Shown here piece by piece: positions 29,187 to 42,504 of a stretch of 64,000 bases of DNA (positions within the stretch are counted from its first letter, which is position 1; each line of letters starts with the position of its first letter). The notes below the pieces were generated by a model that saw nothing but the letters and a program-made list of their open reading frames with translations, had not been told where the DNA came from and ran no database searches. The position numbers and the translations under genes were made by a program. The DNA is from Macrostomum lignano (taxonomy: Eukaryota), in assembly GCA_002269645.1 (NCBI GenBank), contig NIVC01002358.1, positions 1-64,000 of the forward strand, in the 5' to 3' direction.

Positions 29187-30815
29187 CTGATTGGGCGGTG
29201 AGTTGAGGTGAGGGAATTAAGCCAGATTCTTACGGCCTCCCAAAGCAAAATGCTTTGTGGCAAACAAATGGTTGTGCTCCCTTTCACAAAATTGAGCTCC
29301 TTCCTGCTTATGCCAAAATGAGCGCGAGGAGTGCTGGAAGGAATTCCAGGACAGAAGCGCCAAACAAGGGCTAAAATTACCGTGAGTGCTGCAAAACTCG
29401 TTACTATTCCGTCATTTCCCCAACCATTGCGGCGCTGTGCGGCACTGCTCTATACAGCCAGCCACCCTTGGACTGGAAAATCTGTGTGTGACTTCAAATT
29501 TGATTTTTGAAGGGCAATTTTCCAACATTTCCGTTTCTATTCCTCTATATAGACTTTCGAAGATCGCGTGAGGGTGCAGTATCTGCTTGGTTACAGGTAT
29601 GGCAGGTAATAAGCGAAAGAACTGCATGTTAATTTGTTTTGACGAATTCTAATGAGGTTTTACCGTAAACAATTTTTGTAGAAGCTAGAAATATCACAGA
29701 AATACCTACCATCACAGAAATACTGGTAGGAAAAGTTGTAATTATTTATGTTCTATTTTTAGCCAGTTAGCCCAGTTTAATAAAAACTAACAGTGATCCC
29801 TGACCAGAGGCTACGGGAGTACTGCACGCAGATTATGATTTTTGAGTCTTAGACAGTCGAGTATCTTTAGTCGCTAGGCACAGAGACATAATGGTGTTTA
29901 ATTATCAAGAGATCAACTCAACTTACCAGGACTTAACTTTAGATAAGTTTTTTTTTGAAATTGGGCAAAAAATCTCAGCCAAACGCCGACGGGGCGAGCT
30001 GTGAAACCCGATCGACTGACTGACAGGCTTACAGCGGATCCGCAATGCCAGTTGAGACGAAAAAACGACCGGCTTGTGTCAGTTCTGCTTCCCGAAAAAT
30101 TCCATGGTGTCGGCTTTTTCTCCCCAAAGCCCCTATTGAAGGCCAGGCCATGCAGTCCCGCCCAGTCCCATACAAGCCGCTGATTGGTAGTCGCAGAGGC
30201 CTCCAGCTCAATGCCGGGGATGCCTTTGACGGTACACTTGGACACTTGGTAGCGAAGGGCGAAGTTGGTTGAACCAGCCAGCGCGCAGTCGGTGGAGGCA
30301 ACAGTTGGCTCCCTCACGCCCCCCGCCTCTCCTGGAAGGAATCCCTTGGCCTGACTGGCAAATACCAGTGCATAATTTTTGTCTTCCAGGCCATGCCGCC
30401 CAATCCAGCGCCCGGGGAATTCAAGGACTGCTGACGAAAGAAAGTCGCTGACGCAGTTCTGACTTGTTCCTTTACTTCGCGGAAAAAATTCCCGGGCGAT
30501 CCTCCTCTTGCTTTAAGAGGCCACGTGCTGCAATTTCTGCCGCAGGGAAATAAATGCCTTGCAGCACTCACTTCATATGCCCTTTCTCCGGCGGCTTGAA
30601 CAGAAGCTGCATGCCATTTCGGCAATTGGGGCGAAGGAGAATTTCTGTCGTGCCAGGAATTCCTAAAATATCTGCAATGCTTTGCCACCGTTTTTTCCAT
30701 TTCCTGGTAGCATTTTCTCTCACCTCAATCCGCTTGACTTGGTGAAGAAATAGTGAGAGAGTGAGTTTAAAAGAACTTATTCATGCAGGTTTATTTACCA
30801 TTAATGCTATTTGGT

Positions 30816-31697
30816 ACTACTAAGGGATTCCGTAAGTGTTGATTTTGGAGGTGGGGTGGGTGTCAACCCTCCTCGCCTCTCATTGGCTGGCGCCCCGATC
30901 ACTAGGTGATCGATACCCGTATCGATATCGGCGCTCGGCGCGCGCGCGCCGCAGGCGCGTGGCGCCAAGCGCCGTCCAGCCGCAGGCGACCCTCCCGAGC
31001 CACCGGCGACCCTCCCCAGCCGCAGGCGCACCTACCGATATGTATGCTCACCCTACCGACATGTACCCCGATATGTACACCCTCCCGAGCCGCAGGCGCA
31101 CCCTCCCGAGCCGTAGGCGCCCATGCCGCAGACGCCCATGCCGCAGGCACCCCGAGTGTACACTCTACCGAGCCGCAGGCACCCCGAGTGTACACTCTAC
31201 CGAGCCAAAGGTACACTCTACCACTCTCCCGATATGTAGTCAACGATATTAGGCTAGTGAAAACTACTTATAGTAGGTGAAATTGAGTATATTTACATAA
31301 AAATGTAGATAAAACATATTGGTAGGTGAATAATGACGCATATTGCATATTAAAATGTACATATTGGAGCATATGAGCAGCAAAAACACACAATGTAGGT
31401 GTATGGGCAGAAATAGACAAAGCAGGTACTGTAGGCGCTACATAGGTGGAAATACACACAGCAGGTTTACAAAGTGTACTTTCGATACATATCGGATTAA
31501 TGTATAAAGCAGGTTTACAAGGCATGCATAAGGTGTAGTTGTATAATACAGGCACGCATGTATAATCAGATTATAGGCAAACGCCCAGGTGCAACAGACG
31601 CGTAAATAATGTCACACCGACTAAAGAGTAAATATTGTCTAACCCGCAGGTGCATAAAAATTTTAAACAAAAGCGGTTCGGGGAAATCCCAAAAGGG
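30816..31697 (+). repeat. Left terminal inverted repeat (~882 bp)
   Basis: Reverse complement of 39326-40207; the spurious ORFs translated from both copies are identical; one mismatch seen near the inner end. Confidence 0.95.
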
Positions 31698-32015
31698 AGG
31701 TTTTAGCCGCCCGTTTTCGCCACCGCCGCCGCCGCCCTAACCCTCTTATAGGTACAATTGCGTTGAAAGTATTTCGAGTCATTAGGTTGTAATGACCCTC
31801 CATATTTTAGGTGGGTGGACTCGAGCCCGGGGCCAGCCCATTTCAGTTTTTTGGGCCGGCCCCTCTGCCAATTTCCTCCCTAGGAGCGAGCTATCAGAAT
31901 TGGTCTTTTAACCCCCGTGTATACACACATAGAGGCCCCTAGCTAGCGCCCATTCTAACCTACCCAGTGTACAGTGTTGGGTTCCCCAAACCGCGTACAA
32001 AGAGAAATACCCTTA

Positions 32016-33030
32016 TCAGTCAATCTCCATACGCTCCCTCAGGGCTGTCTCGTACGCGGCCTCTTCCTCCACGCTCTCGAAGCAGTAGTCGGATGACTGG
32101 CAATGTGGAAATTATAACAGTCAATGTAGATAGAATATATGCAAGGTATATGATTAGATGAGTTGTGTATATAATGTAATATCTTACCAAATCTAAATCG
32201 TCCTCCAGCCGCCACAGACGTAGAGACGCTGTATAGCGCACCAACGAAAGGTGCTCCTCCCAGTTGGAGGGCCATGCGACGGGCTCATCCCACGCAGTTG
32301 GCCGCGCTCCCGGACCGGCCAGGTACGCCTCAGAGTCGGGGGCATACGAATTGCGCCCCATCAACCAGTCCTGGTGCAGAGTCTCAGCCTCCAACACCTC
32401 CCGTAGGCCGGCACCCCTCGCAACCAAAGTATCAAGAACCCGATTAAAGGCTCTGACAAAGGTAGCTTGGGAGGGCAGCCCGCCAGGATGCCGAGACCTC
32501 AGCCAGTCAATGTCCCCGCGGAAAAATGAGGCCACAATGCGAGGAAAGCGCTCACGAACCACGGCGATCTCCTCAGACATATCCTCGTCCTCGTCGTCGA
32601 AGAGAAGGAGCGTAGCGGCTGATGATATTGAGGCCCGGTGGGAGGTAGTTGAAGCAGCAGCAGAGACGGGCGTAGTAGAGGCGGCAGCAGCAGAGACGGG
32701 CGCAGCAGAGGCAGGGCCGGTTGTGGTCAGCTCCTCAACAGAGACGTCAAAGAGGGCGGCTGAGGCGGTAGTCAAATCGGAGGCAGTAGCAGCAGGGGCA
32801 CCGTTCACAACCCCGCCGATAGCCAGCAGCGGGAGGTCAAAAACTTCAGACTCGGTGTCGCTATCATAGGACATAGCCCAAGCTAGATATTGATCAGCCT
32901 CCCAATTATCACTTCCGTTGTTTTCAGTGCCTAGGGGAACTATGTGTTCAGGGATATCCCCGTCGAGGCTGGTTAACTCTTCAGTCGGGCGATTATTATC
33001 CCAGAGGTTGGATAGAGCTCGGCGGGACAT
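32016..33030 (-). CDS. Element-encoded orphan protein (~307 aa if spliced: 33030-32188, 32096-32016)
   Basis: Open ORF with its own TATATAA (33110-33104). Putative 91-nt GTAAG...CAG intron 32187-32097 gives the C-terminus SSDYCFESVEEEAAYETALRERMEID*. No family recognised. Confidence 0.6.
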
Positions 33031-33146
33031 GCTAGAATCAACAGAGAGTAAAGTATTAGAGCTGAGATAGGGTTTGACTCTCTGGAGAGGGGGGAAACAC
33101 TAATTATATAGACGGATCGAGTGAGGCGGTGCGAACCAATAGGAAA

Positions 33147-33680
33147 CTAGCAGTCCCAACCCTCGTTAAACAGATTTTCCCAGGGTGGAGATTGGTAGGG
33201 TTTGAGACCCACGAGCTGAAGAACATCCACCTCAGTCCCGGCTACCGGAGGCGTGTCTGTCTTGACTCGCTTGGCTGGAGGGGGTGCCTCAGGTGCCGGC
33301 TTGAAGAGCTTGTCCAAACGGGCGGCAAACATCCGGCGCCACAGTTCAGGCGTGAATTCGATCGTGTAGCGCCAATTAAACTTTGGGTCCTGATTGAGCC
33401 AATTGCGCAGCAAACGGATCCTCCCTCGCGAAGCTTCAACTGCCTTGAAATTGCCCAACAGGACCCGCTTGTTCACGTGAAGGCGGGCAGCAGCCTCCAG
33501 GTCAGGGCGCGCAGCTTCGAGCTTCTTCCACTCTGGCTCGGCCAAGTAGATTGCAGGGAAGCCGTCCTTCCACACTCCAGCCTCGTTGGTGTAGAGACGC
33601 CGAATTTCAATCAAGTTGTGTTCAGTTTCAAATGTGGGCTTCCGCGCCACAAAGTTTTCGTATAGAGAGATAGAAGACAT
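33147..33680 (-). CDS. Element-encoded 177-aa protein, putative tandem PC4-like ssDNA-binding protein with NLS
   Basis: IEIRRLYTNEAGVWKDGFPAIYLAEPEWKKL and RIRLLRNWLNQDPKFNWRYTIEFTPELWRRM resemble the PC4 pattern (vdIReyy......pgkkGIsLtpeqW..L); C-terminal PPAKRVKTD. Confidence 0.6.
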   Translation of the reverse strand: MSSISLYENFVARKPTFETEHNLIEIRRLYTNEAGVWKDGFPAIYLAEPEWKKLEAARPDLEAAARLHVNKRVLLGNFKAVEASRGRIRLLRNWLNQDPKFNWRYTIEFTPELWRRMFAARLDKLFKPAPEAPPPAKRVKTDTPPVAGTEVDVLQLVGLKPYQSPPWENLFNEGWDC

Positions 33681-33920
33681 GATTTAGCAGCAGCAGCAGA
33701 GAGCTCTCTGACAGCCGTGCAGCGCCTTATATACCCCCGGATGGAGGGTGGGGTGGGTGATGATTTTGGGGTGATTTTTGATGATTTTGGTTGGTTTTTG
33801 GCGATTTATCCAATAACAGGCGAGCTGAGCAGATTTTTTAGTATATATACAGACCCCCAGAGCCAGGGTAGAGAGATAATCCTTCTCTCCGCTCGCTCTC
33901 TCACGCTCTCTGTTTGCAAA
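33681..33920. promoter_or_regulatory. Divergent promoter region between the PC4-like gene and pPolB
   Basis: Minus-strand TATATAA at 33733-33727 and plus-strand TATATATA at 33842-33849, each upstream of its ATG (33680, 33921). Confidence 0.5.
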
Positions 33921-36900
33921 ATGGCTAAACGCAGCGCCACCGCAACTGCTTTCCTGGCTGACAAGAGGCAACGTCTTTATGGTAAGTTTTAATTAATTTC
34001 TGTCTAGACTGTAGTTGCTAGGGTGGGGGTAGGGGCTGAGCAGCAGCAGCAGCTGCAGGGTCTGTGGGACCGCAGAGTAAACAACAAAGACTGCTGCGAC
34101 AGCTGCAGGGGTCTAGACTGGAGTTGCTAGGGTGGGGTGCTGCGGCAGGGTCTGTAACAGAGAGTTGCAGGGGAGGGCTAGACAAGTTTCAGCCGGGTGT
34201 GTGCTGATAAGAAATTGCTGCTAGGGGGGTGTTGTCCAGACAGGCTGCAGCTGGGGTGCAAATTGCTGCGACAGAGAGTTGCAGGGGTGAGTAAACAAAG
34301 ACTGGGGTGGGGTGTTGTCTAGACAGGGAGGGGTGTGCTGATAAGAAATTGCTGCAAAAACAGACAGTTGCTAGGGTGCTGCGGCAGATAAGAAATTGCT
34401 GCAGAATCGTTGGGGCAGGCTAGACAAGTTACAGCCGGGTGGGGGCAGAGAGTTGCTGGGACAGACTGGGGCTGCAGATAGGGCGCTACCCAGACAGGCT
34501 GCAGCTGGGGTGCAAATTGCTGCGACAGAGAGTTGCAGGGGTGAGTAAACAAAGACTGCTGCGACAGGCTGCAGCGGGGGTGCAGATAAGAAATTGCAGA
34601 GAGTTGCTGCGGGGACAGCAGAGTAAACTCTGTTAAGAAATTGCTGGGGCTAGGGCGGGGAAACACGCTGGGGCCAGGAAAATGACAGATTCTTCTGGTT
34701 TTTTATCTCCTTGTGTTTTTTCAGACGCGTTTGTCCCGCCAACACAGCCGGAATCTGTTACCGGACCGGGTGAGTTATCCCGCCCCCCATTTCCCACACA
34801 GACCCGGGCTGACTCACACTCCCCCATTCCCCCCATGCAGGTTTTACGGCCCGGCTGGATAATCAGCGTGACCTGCCCAAGTTTAGGGCAAAGGGTGTCG
34901 AGTATGTGGTGCGTATTACCAACACCGAAGATTTGCGGGAGGTGTTTGCTGACATGCTCGAAGTTTTCAAGCAAGATTTGGCTGGTGATGACTTTATGGC
35001 CGCGAAATTCGAGAGCGACAATATGCTCAAAGCGGCCCACACTCCCCCGGTGCGTGCAGCCCGCATGACGGCTGAATTGTTGTTTAAGCACATTGACAAG
35101 ATTGTGCAGTCGGATGCCACTGTATTGTCAGGCAACTTTTCTGTCCGTCTGCTAAAGGCCTGGGTGCCTCGAGGTGGATGTGCTCTCGAGAACAAGCATC
35201 TAGAAGAGCGGCATGCCTTCTCCAGGCACTATGTCCGCATCACCAACTCGGACAAGAGATGCCTGCTGCGCGCTCTGGTCGTGGCCTGCGCCTACCTACA
35301 ATTCGTGGCCAAGTCCATCAGCGAGCAGGTGTGGCGCACGATCAAGGCCAATTCGTCCAAGCAGACTAAGCTTGCGACTGAGCTACAAATCGAAGCTGGC
35401 CTCTACACGGTAAGTTTCTAGTATTTTTCTTATAAGAATTTTTACACAGTATCATGGAATACTAAAATTTTCTGATAATAATTTTTACACAGTATCATGG
35501 AGTACTAAAAGATATATTTTCTGATAAGAATTTTTACGATAAGGAATACTAAAAGAATTTTACATAGTATCAGGGAATACTAAAAGAAATATTTTACCCC
35601 CCACACAGACTCTTCAAACCGTCTCGCAGGCTGGTCCTTTCGGGGTGGATGCACTGCCCGAAGCGATCCGTGCCCTGAACCGGCTGCATCCGGGGCACGA
35701 TTTTGGTGTACGCGTGTACCGCGCAGAGGAGGCCAACAGGTGCATCTTCAACCTGCCGGGCACCGAGATTCTGCACCTGCACCTGGTCGAGCAGCACTTT
35801 AATGTGGTCACCAAGCTGCCTGCGTTTTTCGGCAGCCACCACTACTGCGACAAGTGCGAGATGGCCTATGATAGCGAACCCGCCAAGCACAAGTGCGCTG
35901 ATGCCTGCAGCACATGCAAGACTCCGGGCTCCAACTGTAAGGCAAACCGCGCATATGTAAGATGCCATGATTGCGGGCTAAATTGCTATAATGCTCAGTG
36001 CCTAGAAAATCACAAGCGCAAGAATAAGGCCGGCAGATCGCGCTGTGATTCGGTCCACGTTTGCGGCACGTGTGGCTATCTAGAAGAACTAAAAGTAGGC
36101 CAGCCCCCTGAGCATCAGTGTGGTTACGCCAAGTGCCCAGTCTGCAAGCAGTACGACGAAACTGCCACCCACGAGTGCTTTGTCACCCCGCCCAAAGCCA
36201 AAGAGTCTAGCGCCCCGTATGTTTACTATGATTTCGAGACGTACGTGGACTCTGGCAAGCAGCACCGGGTACACTTGGTTACGGCTGCCACCTCCTGCGA
36301 GGCGTGTCCCAAACTCTTCCCCAGGCCCCGCTGCAGCGTGTGCGGGGGACTACACAGCTCAGCCAATTGCATTGCGGGACGCGATTTGGCACTCGATTTC
36401 ACGAGCTGTGTCTCGCACAATGACTGTGCCTGTGGGATGCGAGAGTTTGTATCTGTCGGGCCGCACTCTATCGATGCATTTTACTGCTGGCTGACTAGTG
36501 TGTTCAAGCAGGGGGCAATTGCTATTGCGCACAATGGCTCTGCGTATGACGCATTCCTCCTGCTCGGCGCCCTACTCAACGGACTGGCCAAGAAGAAGCC
36601 GCAGTGATCTTCCAGAACAGCCGCCTAATGTACATGAAGTGCGACAAGATCACCTTCAAGGACAGCCTCAATTTCATCCCTATTGGTCTGGCGCAATTCC
36701 CAAAGGCGCTTGGTTTGGGCACCCAACTGACCAAAGGAGATTTCCCGCACGTGTTTAACCAGCCGGAAAATTGGGGGTACGTGGGACCCTACTGCTCAAT
36801 TGATATGTATGGAGGAAAGAAAAACAAGCAGCATGACTCCATCGCAGACTGGCTGGCCAAGCAGGAGGGACAGGTGTTTAATTTCAATAAGGAGTACCTG

Positions 36901-38966
36901 GACTACTGCCTGCAGGACACGTTAATTTTGCGGGAAGGCTGTCTAAAGTACACCCGCCTGATTAAGGACATTTGCGGACTGGACGCATTTGTTCAATCCA
37001 ACACCATTGCGGGCTTGGCTATGGCTGTTTTCACCACCAAGTTTATGGAGCCCAACACTCTTGGGGTGATTTCCCGCCGGTCCGATGTACAGTCGCACAA
37101 GGCGCGGTGCTGGCTGCGCATTTGAATGCAACCGAGTTTGGCGGCCGGTTGCGGACAGCGGACTCGGGCGGCGAGGCTTTCGCCATGGGCCGTAAGGTCG
37201 ACGGCTTCGACCCAGAGACCAGGACAGTGCTGCAGTTTCATGGCTGTTTCTACCATGGCTGTCCCAAGTGCTTCCCCAACGGCGACGTGCTGCACCCGCT
37301 CAAGAACCAGCCAATGCGGGCGATTTATGAGGAGACTGAGCGCTTCACCCGGCTGCTCTCCACTGCATACAATGTGCGTGTTCTGTGGGAGCACGACTAT
37401 CAGGACGAGGGAGCGCCAGTCCAGCAGCCTATTCGCCTGGAGGATGCCCTGTTTGGCGGCCGTACCGAGGCTTTTGTCCCGCACGCCGAGGCCACCGAGA
37501 CTGTAGAGCTGCGCTATCGGGATGTGGTAAGTTTGTACACTTGTACACACACAGTTGACATGCGTTTGAGTTTATCTTATCCTTATCCCCTAGGTGTCGC
37601 TCTACCCGACTGTCAACAAGTTTGACAAGTACCCGGTCGGGCACCCGGTACACCACCCCGAGCCTCATCTACTGGATGAGCTGCAGCTGGCCCGGTATTT
37701 TGGCATCGCCGAGGTGTCGATTCTGCCGCCAACCAATCTCCACATCCCGCTACTGCCCGCCAAGATTAACAAGAAGTTGGTTTTCGGCCTCTGCCGCGTC
37801 TGCATGGAGACCCAGTGCAGCAGCGAGTGTACACACACTGACGCTGAGAGAATGCTCCGCGGCACGTGGTCGACCCCAGAGCTCCACAAAGCCCTGCAGT
37901 TGGGTTACAAGCTGCAGTCAGTTCATGCCCTGGCCTATTGGACCGAGACTCGCACGGGCCTGTTTGCAGATTATGTAAACACTTTTTTGAAGCTCAAAGC
38001 CGAGTCTAGCGGTTCGCCGGGGATGGCTGAGGACGCCAAGGCTGCCTACATGGCCAGCTTTTTCGAGCGCGAAGGCGTCCGGCTGGAAAAGGTGGAGGAG
38101 AATCCTGGCTTGCGCTTTGTGGCCAAGATTTTTCTAAACTCGTAAGTTTTTTCTACTTGCAGTGGGGCCGTGTTTTTCTACTTACATAAAATTTATTTTT
38201 CCCTGCAGGCTCTGGGGCAAATTCTGCCAGCGCGACGACCTGACCTCCACAGAGATTGTGGACAGCTACGAGGCGTGGCTGCAGCGCCTGACCGACCCCT
38301 CGATCAAGGTCAAGTCGTGCGAGCCAATTGGGGAGAGCTTCATGATGCTCGAGTACAAGCCCCGATTTGGCGGTGCTGGCGAGCGGGCGTTCAAGTACGC
38401 TAATGTACCTATTGGCGTTTTCACCACCTCCCACGCCCGGCTGCGACTCTACGAGGCTCTGGAGGGTCTAGGAACCCGCGTCATTTACGCCGATACTGAT
38501 TCGTGAGTAATTTTTTCAACTGTCTCTGTCTCTCTTTCTCCCCTTAACACTTTATCCTTCTCCTCCTCCCAGGGTCGTATACCGCTGCTCTCCGGGCGAG
38601 TACGAGCCTCCGGGCGGTTCGAGTTTGGGGCAGTGGACTGACGAGGTACCTGCTGGCTGCCGCATGGTACAGTTCACCACGGGAGGCCCCAAGCTCTACC
38701 GGTACGTGGTGGAGAAGCCCGACGGGTCGCTGTACTCGGTGCTCAAGTGCAAGGGCATCAGAGTCACCCCCGAGATTTCCGAGCGCGAGGACGAGCTGCA
38801 GGAAATTCTGCGCCACGGCGGGACTGTACGGCTGCCCCAGGCCCAGTTCAGGCGCGATAAGGCTAGCTGTACAATCCGGACCCTCGAGATGGACAGGACT
38901 TTCCAGCGCGTAATGACTAAGAGGGTGTATGGGGCCGCTAGCCGCCCGTATGGCTTTCGGGAGTGA
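33921..38966 (+). CDS. polB: Protein-primed family B DNA polymerase (pPolB), ~1,270 aa, 7 exons: 33921-33981, 34725-34769, 34841-35409, 35630(or 35609)-37526, 37594-38141, 38209-38502, 38573-38966; two apparent single-base deletions (~36600, ~37118)
   Basis: ExoI YYDFET, ExoII AHNGSAYD, FKDSLNF, ExoIII YCLQDT, Vsr-like VDGFD...QFHGCFYHGCPKCF, motif A YRDV|VSLYP, motif B AKIFLNS|LWGKF, motif C YADTDS|VVY; all six introns GT-AG and phase-compatible. Confidence 0.9.
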
Positions 38967-39325
38967 GTGAAAGATAAGGATCTGTCTTTGCACGCCTGGG
39001 ATTCCCCTATGTGCCCACTTGGGATCCCTTGACTCGTGGGGATGAAAATGGTTTTACGCCCGCACTGTACTTAGGGGTCCTTACTCATTTGGCACCTCCA
39101 CTGTACATTGAGCGGGATCCCCTCAAGTGTTAAAACTCCCATTTGACACCTATTCCCTCGGGGCGGTTTGTGGCCCAGCGGTCCGCCTCTTGGAGTAGAA
39201 CTCCTGACATAAACTTGCTGCGCTGATTAGCGTACTGATAGCGCAATCGAAATACGTCCATTTTTCTAGCCCACTTGTGGGTTTAATTGTGTTGAAAGTA
39301 TATCGGGTCATTAGGTCGTGAACCA

Positions 39326-40207
39326 CCCTTTTGGGATTTCCCCGAACCGCTTTTGGTTAAAATTTTTATGCACCTGCGGGTTAGACAATATTTACTCTTT
39401 AGTCGGTGTGACATTATTTACGCGTCTGTTGCACCTGGGCGTTTGCCTATAATCTGATTATACATGCGTGCCTGTATTATACAACTACACCTTATGCATG
39501 CCTTGTAAACCTGCTTTATACATTAATCCGATATGTATCGAAAGTACACTTTGTAAACCTGCTGTGTGTATTTCCACCTATGTAGCGCCTACAGTACCTG
39601 CTTTGTCTATTTCTGCCCATACACCTACATTGTGTGTTTTTGCTGCTCATATGCTCCAATATGTACATTTTAATATGCAATATGCGTCATTATTCACCTA
39701 CCAATATGTTTTATCTACATTTTTATGTAAATATACTCAATTTCACCTACTATAAGTAGTTTTCACTAGCCTAATATCGTTGACTACATATCGGGAGAGT
39801 GGTAGAGTGTACCTTTGGCTCGGTAGAGTGTACACTCGGGGTGCCTGCGGCTCGGTAGAGTGTACACTCGGGGTGCCTGCGGCATGGGCGTCTGCGGCAT
39901 GGGCGCCTACGGCTCGGGAGGGTGCGCCTGCGGCTCGGGAGGGTGTACATATCGGGGTACATGTCGGTAGGGTGAGCATACATATCGGTAGGTGCGCCTG
40001 CGGCTGGGGAGGGTCGCCGGTGGCTCGGGAGGGTCGCCTGCGGCTGGACGGCGCTTGGCGCCACGCGCCTGCGGCGCGCGCGCGCCGAGCGCCGATATCG
40101 ATACGGGTATCGATCACCTAGTGATCGGGGCGCCAGCCAATGAGAGGCGAGGAGGGTTGACACCCACCCCACCTCCAAAATCAACACTTACGGAATCCCT
40201 TAGTAGT
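39326..40207 (-). repeat. Right terminal inverted repeat (~882 bp)
   Basis: Reverse complement of 30816-31697. Confidence 0.95.
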
Positions 40208-42504
40208 TTTGGTGTTGCAACCAATGCATGTAGAACTCGAGCTGTACATGTAGAAGTCCAATTTTGTTTCTTAGCACTGCATGTATCAGAAACAGCTCCC
40301 ATTATCTCACCGTATGGACTTCCGAATGACAAATGGTTTGATTTTCAAGATCAAACATGAAACTTCATGAAGCTTCATCAGTTTATCGACGTAAATTCAG
40401 GAAAAATACTACTAACGACTGTCAAGTGCGCGAAATTTGAGCAAAATTTGCTTCTTCGTGCAGCTTCTTCTGGAAATTTTGGGTCCACCTCCATCTATTA
40501 ATTTAACACGTGCAAGGGACACTACTGCGCCTTCAAATATACGAATTATTTATCTTATAGAGTAGTTCGTTCTGATGCAATTGTAACCTCGATTAATATT
40601 TGCTAAATAATACTGGCACCATATGCCGTGTGGTCGCCATGCAGGCGTTAGCGGAGATGGGCGGCGACGCTGATTTTATCTCATTTATATTTCATTTTGA
40701 CTTCATTTTACTCTCTGATCCCCGATAAGCCTCCGATCAAGCTCTTGAAGGCTGGTCCCTCCACATGTACATGGCACACAAACTATATCGTAGTAGATGC
40801 ATGTATACTCTATAAATTAAAGCTTAGCACTAAAGTACAGTCCATGTAAAAAGCGTGCGCGTGCAGAAGTATGAAATTAGCAGTTTTTTTTTGTTTGAAA
40901 CTGTGAAGCATACTGCGCCGTCAGCGATTGGATTTTCGTACTTGCAAAATAAGTACATATGTAGTGTTGTGCGATTATGACTTGTGACAACTTACTACAC
41001 AAAAAAGAAATGAACTAGCTAAGTACTTTGTAGTTTATGCAGTCAAGCTCATAGGAAAGACAAAGTGAATTAATTGTGATAAATAGTATGGGGGGAAGCT
41101 GTAAGAATTATTAATTAAGATGGAGACTCCACGACACAAAACTGAGGTTCACAACTACGCTTCAAGGACCACTAGTTCTTCTTCTAGTGGTCCTTGCTAC
41201 GCTTTACTGAAGTCTATCTAGGCCTATTACTCATACGAGTTTATTAGGCAAAACTAAGTATTTTTTCTCTTAGATAGATAGTCTAAAATCGTATTTTGAA
41301 TATAAGAAATTATTTACTACAGCTTTTTTTGCCAGACAAGTTTTGTTTATATTGAACAGTGGATTAATTTTAAACTGACCGACGTCGAAGAAATGCGCTC
41401 GTAGAGCGCTCGTTTATTAATATGAAACGGTGGGTTAGCTCCAAGGGCAAGTAATAATGAAAAAGTCTGTCAGGCGTCTGTCAGGCGTTAAGCCTTACAA
41501 TTAGGTCTAATGTAGTGAGATTGCTAAAATAAAAATAGTATATATGAAGCATATTGCAATAGGGGCATAGCCCATAGGGCATAGGGCCTGTCTGTCTGAG
41601 CTGTCTTCCTGCCACATGTGTATGTATGTACCATCACATTAAAGAATTGCAGCCTAGCTTATTGGATTTGCTTTCTCAATAATGTCGAGATCTGCTACTG
41701 TTTATAGCTTTAAGCTTCTTAATAATATGTAGACTTATAGTTAATGATTAGTCAACTTTGTCTTTAGTTTAGTTAAAAATGTGATTGCTAGCTAAGTCAG
41801 TAGCCACTTGTACTTTCATTTTGTCAAACTCAAAGCATTAAGCTATAATAAAAATCAAAGTAGTATTTTTCATGACATTAAATGTTTTACTTTTAGGCCT
41901 AGCCATTATAGAATAACTTGCTTGAATAAAAAAATTGCTTAATTAATGTTTAGGTTTATTAAATTAAGGTCATATTCATAGATATAATATAAAAAATTTG
42001 ATTTTTCTTCTCAATATTCTGAGAGTTACAAGAAATAAGGACAAGGTAATTTATTTCAAAAAAAATTTACTATTTTGTACTATTTTTAAGTGTTCTAATA
42101 TTATATTTATTATTGTCAATAAATCATTTCTTATAAAACTATATAAAAATAAATTTAACATTTTTAATAATTCAAAAGTGTTTTTTTATTGAATATATAA
42201 TTTTTTTTGTTTTTATTCTTTTATTGACTTTATATAACTCTTGACTATTGTCAATTGAGCCTATATCTGAAATAATAAATATATAATAGGGATGAAATTT
42301 CAAAGGTTATAATCAGTAACATTTTTAGCAATAATGCTATCTTAATTAGAAAATTGAAGTTGAACTAAAAATTATATTATTTAAAAATAATCATGTAACT
42401 TTTATATCAAATTCTAACTATAATATTGATTAATTTAACTTTAAAGGTTTGATTTATATTAATTATAAAAACAATTATTAATGCATGTAAGTAAATCAAA
42501 TCCA

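Follow-up and report, generated by a model that had tools for sequence, protein, structure and literature searches.

A Polinton-like family of Macrostomum lignano with a spliced polymerase and without integrase or virion genes

Organisation of the element

The window analysed here is a stretch of 64,000 nucleotides from Macrostomum lignano (assembly GCA_002269645.1, contig NIVC01002358.1, positions 1 to 64,000 of the forward strand), in which positions 30816-40207 constitute a 9,392-bp Polinton-like element with three genes inside, namely (i) a spliced polymerase gene of the pPolB type, (ii) a gene for a PC4-type, putative single-stranded DNA-binding protein, and (iii) an orphan gene. The element is one member of a multicopy family lacking integrase and virion genes, which very probably replicates itself and integrates by means of an enzyme supplied in trans. 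Its ends read 5'-ACTACTA...TAGTAGT-3' and belong to two terminal inverted repeats (TIRs) with 2 mismatches between them; the near-identity reported in a first-pass annotation of the sequence thus holds, while the length of ~882 bp given there becomes 887 bp, i.e., inside the 100-1500 bp range for Polintons/Mavericks. The 6-bp target-site duplication (TSD) TTTGGT, described as perfect, was seen again on both sides, and the content of three genes was confirmed by gene queries and by splice joints in the contigs of three sequencing runs taken as RNA (RNA-type runs). The features are as follows.

30810..30815, no strand: left TSD, TTTGGT (sequence)
30816..31702, + strand: left TIR, 887 bp, starting ACTACTA; presumed replication origin and integrase substrate
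30823..30842, + strand: fixed-length hypervariable block, TIR positions 8-27 (comparison of 36 ends)
30848..30879, + strand: conserved stretch, able to form a hairpin, next to the variable block on its inner side (folding z -3.0 for the first 120 nt)
32016..32096, - strand: orphan exon 2, acidic tail (joint 32096/32188, seen in the three RNA-type runs; UniRef models have this tail too)
32188..33030, - strand: orphan exon 1, acidic Ala/Ser/Thr-rich first half and predicted all-helical domain of ~140 aa
33147..33680, - strand: PC4-type, putative single-stranded DNA-binding protein, 177 aa (profile, Atlas, relatives)
33681..33920, no strand: 240-bp PC4-pPolB intergenic region containing TATA-like boxes, a putative divergent promoter (sequence)
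33921..33981, + strand: pPolB exon 1 (RNA-type contig joints)
34725..34769, + strand: pPolB exon 2, preceded by intron 1, which is repetitive and 743 nt long (RNA-type contig joints)
34841..35409, + strand: pPolB exon 3, N-terminal region common to related Polinton pPolBs, at the putative terminal-protein position (hhalign)
35609..37526, + strand: pPolB exon 4, with Cys-rich region, exonuclease motifs and VSR-type nuclease insert; 2 frame breaks in the window copy
37594..38141, + strand: pPolB exon 5, polymerase motif A through motif B, both intron-split (joints, motifs)
38209..38502, + strand: pPolB exon 6, motif C (YADTD) at its end (joints, motifs)
38573..38966, + strand: pPolB exon 7 (joints)
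39321..40207, - strand: right TIR, 887 bp (self-comparison of the element)
40208..40213, no strand: right TSD, TTTGGT (sequence)

A spliced polymerase gene under purifying selection

Organised in 7 exons and 6 GT-AG introns, three of which interrupt or adjoin polymerase motifs A, B and C, the pPolB gene would have a spliced product of ~1,275 residues. The 7 introns of the element (6 in pPolB and 1 in the orphan) are skipped by contigs, each joint occurring in at least two of the three RNA-type runs and none of the seven being listed for the DNA run. The three runs were assigned to RNA by guess, no run being recorded as such and read depth being unused; the intron-skipping joints, which are not in the DNA run, argue for this assignment. 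Transcripts of pPolB and of the orphan undergo host-type splicing. The Pfam family PF03175 is matched above cut-off in two exon pieces, as would befit a Polinton polymerase, and identity to pPolBs from animals and metagenomes amounts to 40-49%. Exon 3 corresponds to the N-terminal end of related pPolBs in alignment (hhalign 99.1%, E 1.6e-18), and a model built from the single sequence (pLDDT 46) gave no fold match.

In the window copy, the frame is broken twice within exon 4, near 36,600 and 37,115. At the first break all 12 other copies compared are unlike it, and at the second 11 of 12 are; contigs of all four runs (RNA-type and DNA) read through both breaks, and exon 4 is open end to end in 3 of the 12 copies. 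When pPolB was compared with these copies, leaving out codons hit by multiple changes, synonymous variants numbered 156 and replacement variants 52, i.e., a ratio of ~0.10 per site, with no stop arising by substitution; judged by these counts, pPolB is under strong purifying selection. Its VSR-type nuclease stretch retains the nuclease motifs and accounts for 12 synonymous and 3 replacement variants.

A multicopy family inserted with 6-bp duplications

A DNA search of the 764-Mb genome, in which 16 of 421 candidates were scored, returned colinear copies of 94-99% identity among those scored, and 186 occurrences of a 33-base TIR motif were counted (control, 0), a number of ends suggesting a family of about 90 copies. 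Among the 180 places listed, 66 inward-facing pairs of ends were recognised, 12 of them below 8 kb and 50 of 8-10 kb; the remaining four span 10.5 kb, 11.1 kb, 40.6 kb and 167 kb, the last one being two unrelated ends. Shorter deletion forms of the family extend from 1.1 to 7.7 kb. The end motif (ACT)2A//T(AGT)2 is present in 36 of 36 ends, and all 18 copies read at both ends are flanked by perfect 6-bp TSDs, all different (their third base is C in 11 and their fourth is G in 8), so that the copy census called for in the first-pass annotation reveals a multicopy family and not a one-off deletion.

A two-gene subfamily of ~8.8 kb (8.76 kb), with TIRs exceeding 1.1 kb, carries PC4 and pPolB only. 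Its PC4 matches, of 84-93% identity, adjoin no orphan, just a trace of the last intron and exon of the orphan being left in the one copy read in detail, and its TSDs are perfect in the three copies read at both ends (3/3). Since this subfamily inserts equally cleanly without it, the orphan is not the integrase.

Some individual copies deserve description. The three two-gene copies read (G000:C24, C811 and C1165) all exhibit the same one-base difference of one end from the other, on either side, which suggests a possible flip-flop of the ends in replication. Rearranged copies, in which PC4 or orphan genes are duplicated, the duplicates being inverted or flanking (G000:C1157, C1158, C1090, C157 and C513), look like fold-back defective forms. 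A 5.7-kb copy (G000:C1944:70505-76964) starts exactly at the end of a partial match to a resident integrase, as if inserted into the integrase gene of a helper.

A sister family, of ~65% DNA identity in pPolB, has its exons 3-7 interrupted at the same places. It starts ACTACGT and has TIRs of ~370 bp; its motif occurs 68 times and forms 22 pairs, 20 of which measure 2.6-10.4 kb, while a 13.8-kb pair holds a LINE-type open reading frame (ORF) and the other long pair measures 15.5 kb (C2285:125089-140547). The copy that was read is 10.4 kb long, with a GGGGGG duplication (1/1 copy), and encodes PC4, a low-complexity ORF and a dUTPase (PF00692, L043:5907-6434). No integrase or capsid was found in the stretches of the sister family that were read, and because it shares this absence, the reduced design is older than the split of the two diverged families.

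Hypervariable block and likeness of the two ends

Within the TIR, a block of constant length takes 16 forms among the 36 ends, whereas positions 1-7 and 28-36 are invariant and positions 41-80 vary little. It is made of short recombining blocks, and pairwise changes among the 16 forms, which are non-independent comparisons, comprise 531 A/T and C/G flips, 385 transitions and 260 other transversions. Across this block both ends are identical in 12 of 18 copies and at most one base apart in 15 of 18, as against ~5% by chance. As the two ends of an element thus appear homogenised by copying, TIR identity is weak evidence of age, and the very recent insertion proposed in the first-pass annotation gains little support from it, sound as the observation itself is. 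Two ends of the sister family show a like variable block. It may, as a guess, let the element evade silencing that targets particular sequences, or reflect rivalry among origins.

Absence of integrase and virion genes

Fifteen queries, covering integrases, capsids, pentons, ATPases and protease from resident Polintons as well as a gypsy integrase, were run against the window element, 12 other copies and 3 sister stretches with a best E of 0.45, and against the left arm of one two-gene copy with zero matches; the same queries recovered these genes in control viral contigs, and a PC4 query recovered the PC4 gene. With queries negative and controls positive, the reported lack of integrase, major and minor capsid, A32-type ATPase and protease stands. 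None of the 73 scored capsid hits in the genome (PF21738) falls on the window element, and the 8.76 kb of the two-gene form leave no room for an integrase.

Two findings would have spoken against the first-pass annotation, namely copies with the same TIRs carrying integrase or capsid genes, and an orphan turning out to be a known integrase or capsid. Neither was encountered: 62 of the 66 end pairs are below 10 kb, the single pair enclosing an integrase, of 40.6 kb, fits nesting, and the orphan has no such identity and is missing from a subfamily that inserts cleanly. In the 40.6-kb pair (G000:C271:276966-317531), ~31 kb of extra DNA, with an unrelated second polymerase and an integrase, lies between the family's own pPolB and PC4; this second polymerase is of a type found ~11 kb from the same integrase type elsewhere, and the pair is probably a nested full Polinton. 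Respective to the characters by which Polintons are recognised, the element thus possesses pPolB, the TIR length and the 6-bp TSD, and lacks the rve integrase, the virion genes and any of the known end motifs.

PC4-type protein and orphan

Taken alone, the PC4-type protein scores E 0.19 with Pfam PC4, i.e., below cut-off, its Atlas neighbours are PC4 (score < 0.9) and there are leads in PDB. It is 45% identical to the protein of the sister family and 29-33% to proteins of full Polintons, and two of three such relatives pass the PC4 cut-off. Genes ~37% identical to it are clustered at G000:C1753:139521-211974, some 3.4 kb apart.

The orphan encodes 307 aa in two exons. Across the 12 copies its helical part counts 12 synonymous variants, 1 replacement variant and one stop, from which it is judged to be under purifying selection, though lost from the mobile two-gene subfamily. 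A word search returned 5 proteins, all from M. lignano and bearing automatic names (DDE_Tnp_1_7, ParB) without Pfam support, and a profile search of 1.84 billion proteins gave 7 matches, 5 strong and 2 weak; no relative beyond M. lignano was present among the named results. Its all-helical model (pLDDT 46) had no Foldseek match at E 0.001, and an Atlas lead towards DUF3516 was dropped for low recognition.

The host DNA around the element (window 6795-59775) contains many long minisatellites (periods 14-113, up to ~3 kb) and host-type ORFs.

Resident full Polintons

The genome is rich in Polinton genes, with 119 scored pPolB hits and well above 100 integrase hits beside the capsid hits already mentioned, mostly in open frames. 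In the stretches read, several resident families comprise integrase (Pfam rve matched), capsids, ATPase, protease and polymerase, two of them measuring end to end ~18 kb and 16.5-18 kb; the end pairs concerned span 16.5-18.7 kb. PC4 is the only gene that the window element has in common with these full Polintons. A helper with ACTACT ends, as predicted in the first-pass annotation, was not found, the four families read at their ends starting AGTAG. A polymerase tree, from which 9 of 24 homologues were dropped for missing anchoring motifs and which was used only for remoteness, places resident polymerases on very long branches and is poorly resolved. Polymerases of the window type from M. lignano in UniRef map to the window family or its sister in 12 of 12 cases checked.

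One resident family of ~18 kb, here family A, has a terminal 100-bp imperfect palindrome at L040:9314-9414 (G000:C67) with the inner arm ACTACTAC. At its N-terminus, the integrase of this family shows a phospholipase-A2-like match, and a D5-like helicase ORF was recognised by eye. A bipartite system in which family A would be the capsid segment, suggested by that palindrome arm, was rejected given its own polymerase and helicase and its size. Another full resident Polinton, at L048:1203-1766 (G000:C393), has a gene for a TATA-binding protein (PF00352, E 3.7e-23) adjoining its polymerase.

Relatives and known systems

In two viral contigs, related polymerases stand beside integrase and virion genes, from which it follows that these genes were lost in the window lineage; scans of viral contigs with single proteins found nothing. 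Among 80 metagenome loci with a related polymerase, an integrase was recognised in 10, an ATPase in 23 and a capsid in 3. In metagenomes and viruses, one unbroken frame of 1,345-1,416 residues can encode a related polymerase, hence the introns were gained in the window lineage. One metagenome stretch of 5.9 kb (L092:3325-9254) has AGTAGT ends, 155-bp repeats and a polymerase only, with no matching duplication, and another (L084:181-5156) is 85% identical to it over the polymerase and right end; the former hints that polymerase-only forms may recur. In L077-L082, a related pPolB is accompanied by a RING gene and a small ORF, the whole ending at a tRNA-like sequence; neither a TIR nor an integrase was seen there, and the element may be targeted to tRNA genes.

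A TSD of 6 bp is a signature of the Polinton integrase (PMC8097293). The end motifs listed in that source are (AGT)2//(ACT)2, (AG)3//(CT)3 and (AC)3A//T(GT)3; the (ACT)2 ends of the window element are not among these three and resemble the third in nothing but the outer AC...GT. Swamp-eel Mavericks are known to have AC...GT ends (PMC8097293). Like pPolB2-type Polintons/Mavericks (bioRxiv 10.1101/2023.08.22.554363; PMC8097293), the element has a VSR-type insert, long TIRs, a 6-bp TSD and a terminal trinucleotide repeat; in contrast to them, it measures 9.4 kb against 13-25 kb and is devoid of integrase, capsids, ATPase and protease. Six introns are spliced in its pPolB, whereas the intact vertebrate Mavericks described in PMC8097293 are intronless; introns are known in polinton-like elements of dinoflagellates (PMC12166617).

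As far as is known, capsid-less autonomous Polintons keep the integrase. Loss of the virion module also concerns the Repbase entries Polinton-1_EI, Polinton-1_GI, Polinton-1N1_DR and Polinton-2N1_DR (PMC4028283), and since Table S1 of that source has neither an integrase nor a polymerase column, the presence of pPolB without integrase in capsid-less or "N" Polintons cannot be read there. The polB-lacking polintons of insects (bioRxiv 10.1101/2025.02.07.637071), likewise multicopy, partial and complemented in trans, represent the mirror case, where the polymerase was lost, while the window lineage lost the integrase and kept the polymerase. Cytoplasmic and mitochondrial linear plasmids (PMC11161782) are also Polinton-derived, with a terminal protein fused to pPolB and neither virion module nor integrase, but replicate outside the nucleus in fungi and plants, whereas the window element has spliceosomal introns, host transcription and insertion in an animal chromosome. 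Casposons (PMC5718144) are also capsid-less, self-synthesizing and equipped with a family B polymerase, but are prokaryotic or organellar and have their own integrating enzyme. Neither Macrostomum Polintons nor a Polinton family that retains its polymerase and lacks an integrase was found described in the literature consulted, Repbase, Kapitonov and Jurka 2006, the 2024 MMBR review and the supplements of a bioRxiv nematode survey lying outside that scope, so that prior annotation is possible. Pipolins are reportedly capsid-less as well, with a family B polymerase, a prokaryotic or organellar distribution and an integrating enzyme of their own.

Replication by the element, integration in trans

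Protein-primed replicons and Polintons are linear DNAs whose copying starts from the terminal repeats and is done by a pPolB that carries a priming domain at its N-terminus (PMC11161782; PMC8097293; bioRxiv 10.1101/2023.08.22.554363). By analogy, the window element would be copied in the nucleus as a linear form, from its ACTACT ends and by its own pPolB, primed by the putative terminal-protein region at the N-terminus of this polymerase and helped by the PC4-type single-strand binding protein. Displaced strands would fold through the long TIRs, making both ends alike, and a full Polinton resident in the same genome would provide, in trans, the retroviral-type (rve) integrase that inserts the new linear copies. 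Its own polymerase would be kept since the ACTAC origin differs from the AGTAG origin of the helpers, and the helper integrase would have to tolerate two flipped G:C pairs (ACTACTA versus AGTAGTA), which is plausible given the AC...GT ends of swamp-eel Mavericks. The "replicon-only" class borrowing an integrase, put forward in the first-pass annotation, is thus supported by the family, the clean TSDs and the missing integrase, and a resident Polinton of the AGTAG type is somewhat favoured as the putative donor.

Several points weigh against this reading. All four resident families bearing integrase or capsid and read at their ends start AGTAG and not ACTAC, no sequence alignable with the window TIR was found in them, and resident polymerases gave no tblastn match to the window pPolB at E 0.01; on this evidence no parent family is resident, none of those read being a parent by simple deletion. 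The integrase candidates scored were the best 119 of 2,453 and 143 of 1,509, and at least three resident polymerase types lack a link to read ends. The 40.6-kb pair does enclose an integrase, its nesting being read from gene order and not from junctions. Exon 4 has 1-5 gaps of 1-2 bases in 9 of the 12 other copies, some common to 2-3 copies. Of 24 metagenome loci of at least 7 kb, 11 show any integrase or virion gene and 13 show none, so linkage of polymerase and integrase is not universal among relatives. Finally, the element is known here from contig sequence alone, from which linear form, protein priming and integration are deduced.

An unlikely alternative is that the family is a satellite of an unseen cognate helper, i.e., of a full Polinton or virus with ACTAC ends, be it exogenous, no longer present in the line or one of the unscored families. 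Transposases usually need their own end sequence, only the best candidates were scored and several resident families are without read ends, and AC...GT-ended Mavericks do exist (PMC8097293). On the other side, no end pair of full-Polinton size has the window TIR except the nested case, the UniRef polymerases of the window type checked all belong to the window family or its sister, and two families 65% alike are both without these genes, implying a long life without linked integrase.

It is quite improbable that insertion is due to another DDE enzyme of the host genome making 6-bp duplications, be it the integrase of a gypsy-type retrotransposon or a transposase of the Ginger type. The genome does contain gypsy-type integrase ORFs, and both enzyme types are said to be akin to the Polinton integrase; however, the ends, the TIR length and the constant 6-bp TSD fit Polintons, retroviral-type ends are normally TG...CA and retrotransposon integrases work on the cDNA of their own particles.

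It appears very improbable that the element integrates unaided through some unrecognised activity, for which the VSR-type nuclease within pPolB would be the most plausible candidate. No end-matching helper was found, the two-gene subfamily leaves pPolB and PC4 as sole candidates, and the VSR stretch is conserved with its motifs. Against this, a constant 6-bp stagger with precise ends denotes paired strand transfer, for which VSR nucleases are, to our knowledge, not known, and the insert is shared with integrase-bearing Polintons (bioRxiv 10.1101/2023.08.22.554363).

A passive non-autonomous derivative, amplified wholly by helper proteins and with a polymerase that is a decaying relic, would agree with the frame breaks of the window and most other copies and with the shorter deletion forms, but is highly improbable and largely refuted by the strong purifying selection on pPolB, the spliced transcripts, the introns kept in the sister family and the nature of the breaks, which are gaps of 1-2 bases without substitution stops, read through by the contigs of four runs and presumably mostly assembly errors.

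Significance

Virion-less and polymerase-less Polintons are already known, and what appears new here is that the polymerase is kept and the integrase lost; replication in cis with integration in trans would best be filed as a satellite Polinton lineage autonomous for replication only. A bolder and rather doubtful proposal is that it represents the first linear-plasmid-like replicon of an animal nucleus, i.e., an old intron-bearing lineage living as free protein-primed linear DNA with its own origin, which would parasitise only the integrase of unrelated Polintons across end types (or use a new pPolB-borne route) and keep a 20-bp origin block hypervariable against silencing or competitors. If true, polymerase-only derivatives may recur in other animals, filtered from surveys requiring a nearby integrase and a long unspliced frame. 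One eukaryote-wide survey required of each pPolB a frame of 900 residues or more and an integrase close by (bioRxiv 10.1101/2023.08.22.554363), a design that would miss elements of the window type.

The combination of polymerase and integrase defines Polintons, whose replication and integration are so far described by models and not from observation. RNAi is established in the laboratory flatworm Macrostomum lignano, the species under which UniRef lists identical proteins, and in this host the identity of the helper, the free linear forms and the variable end block are directly testable. A successful transcribed lineage uncoupling both functions would mean that the integrating enzyme can be provided by another element in trans, apparently even where the end sequences differ, and would fill a step from Polintons to linear plasmids inside the animal nucleus.

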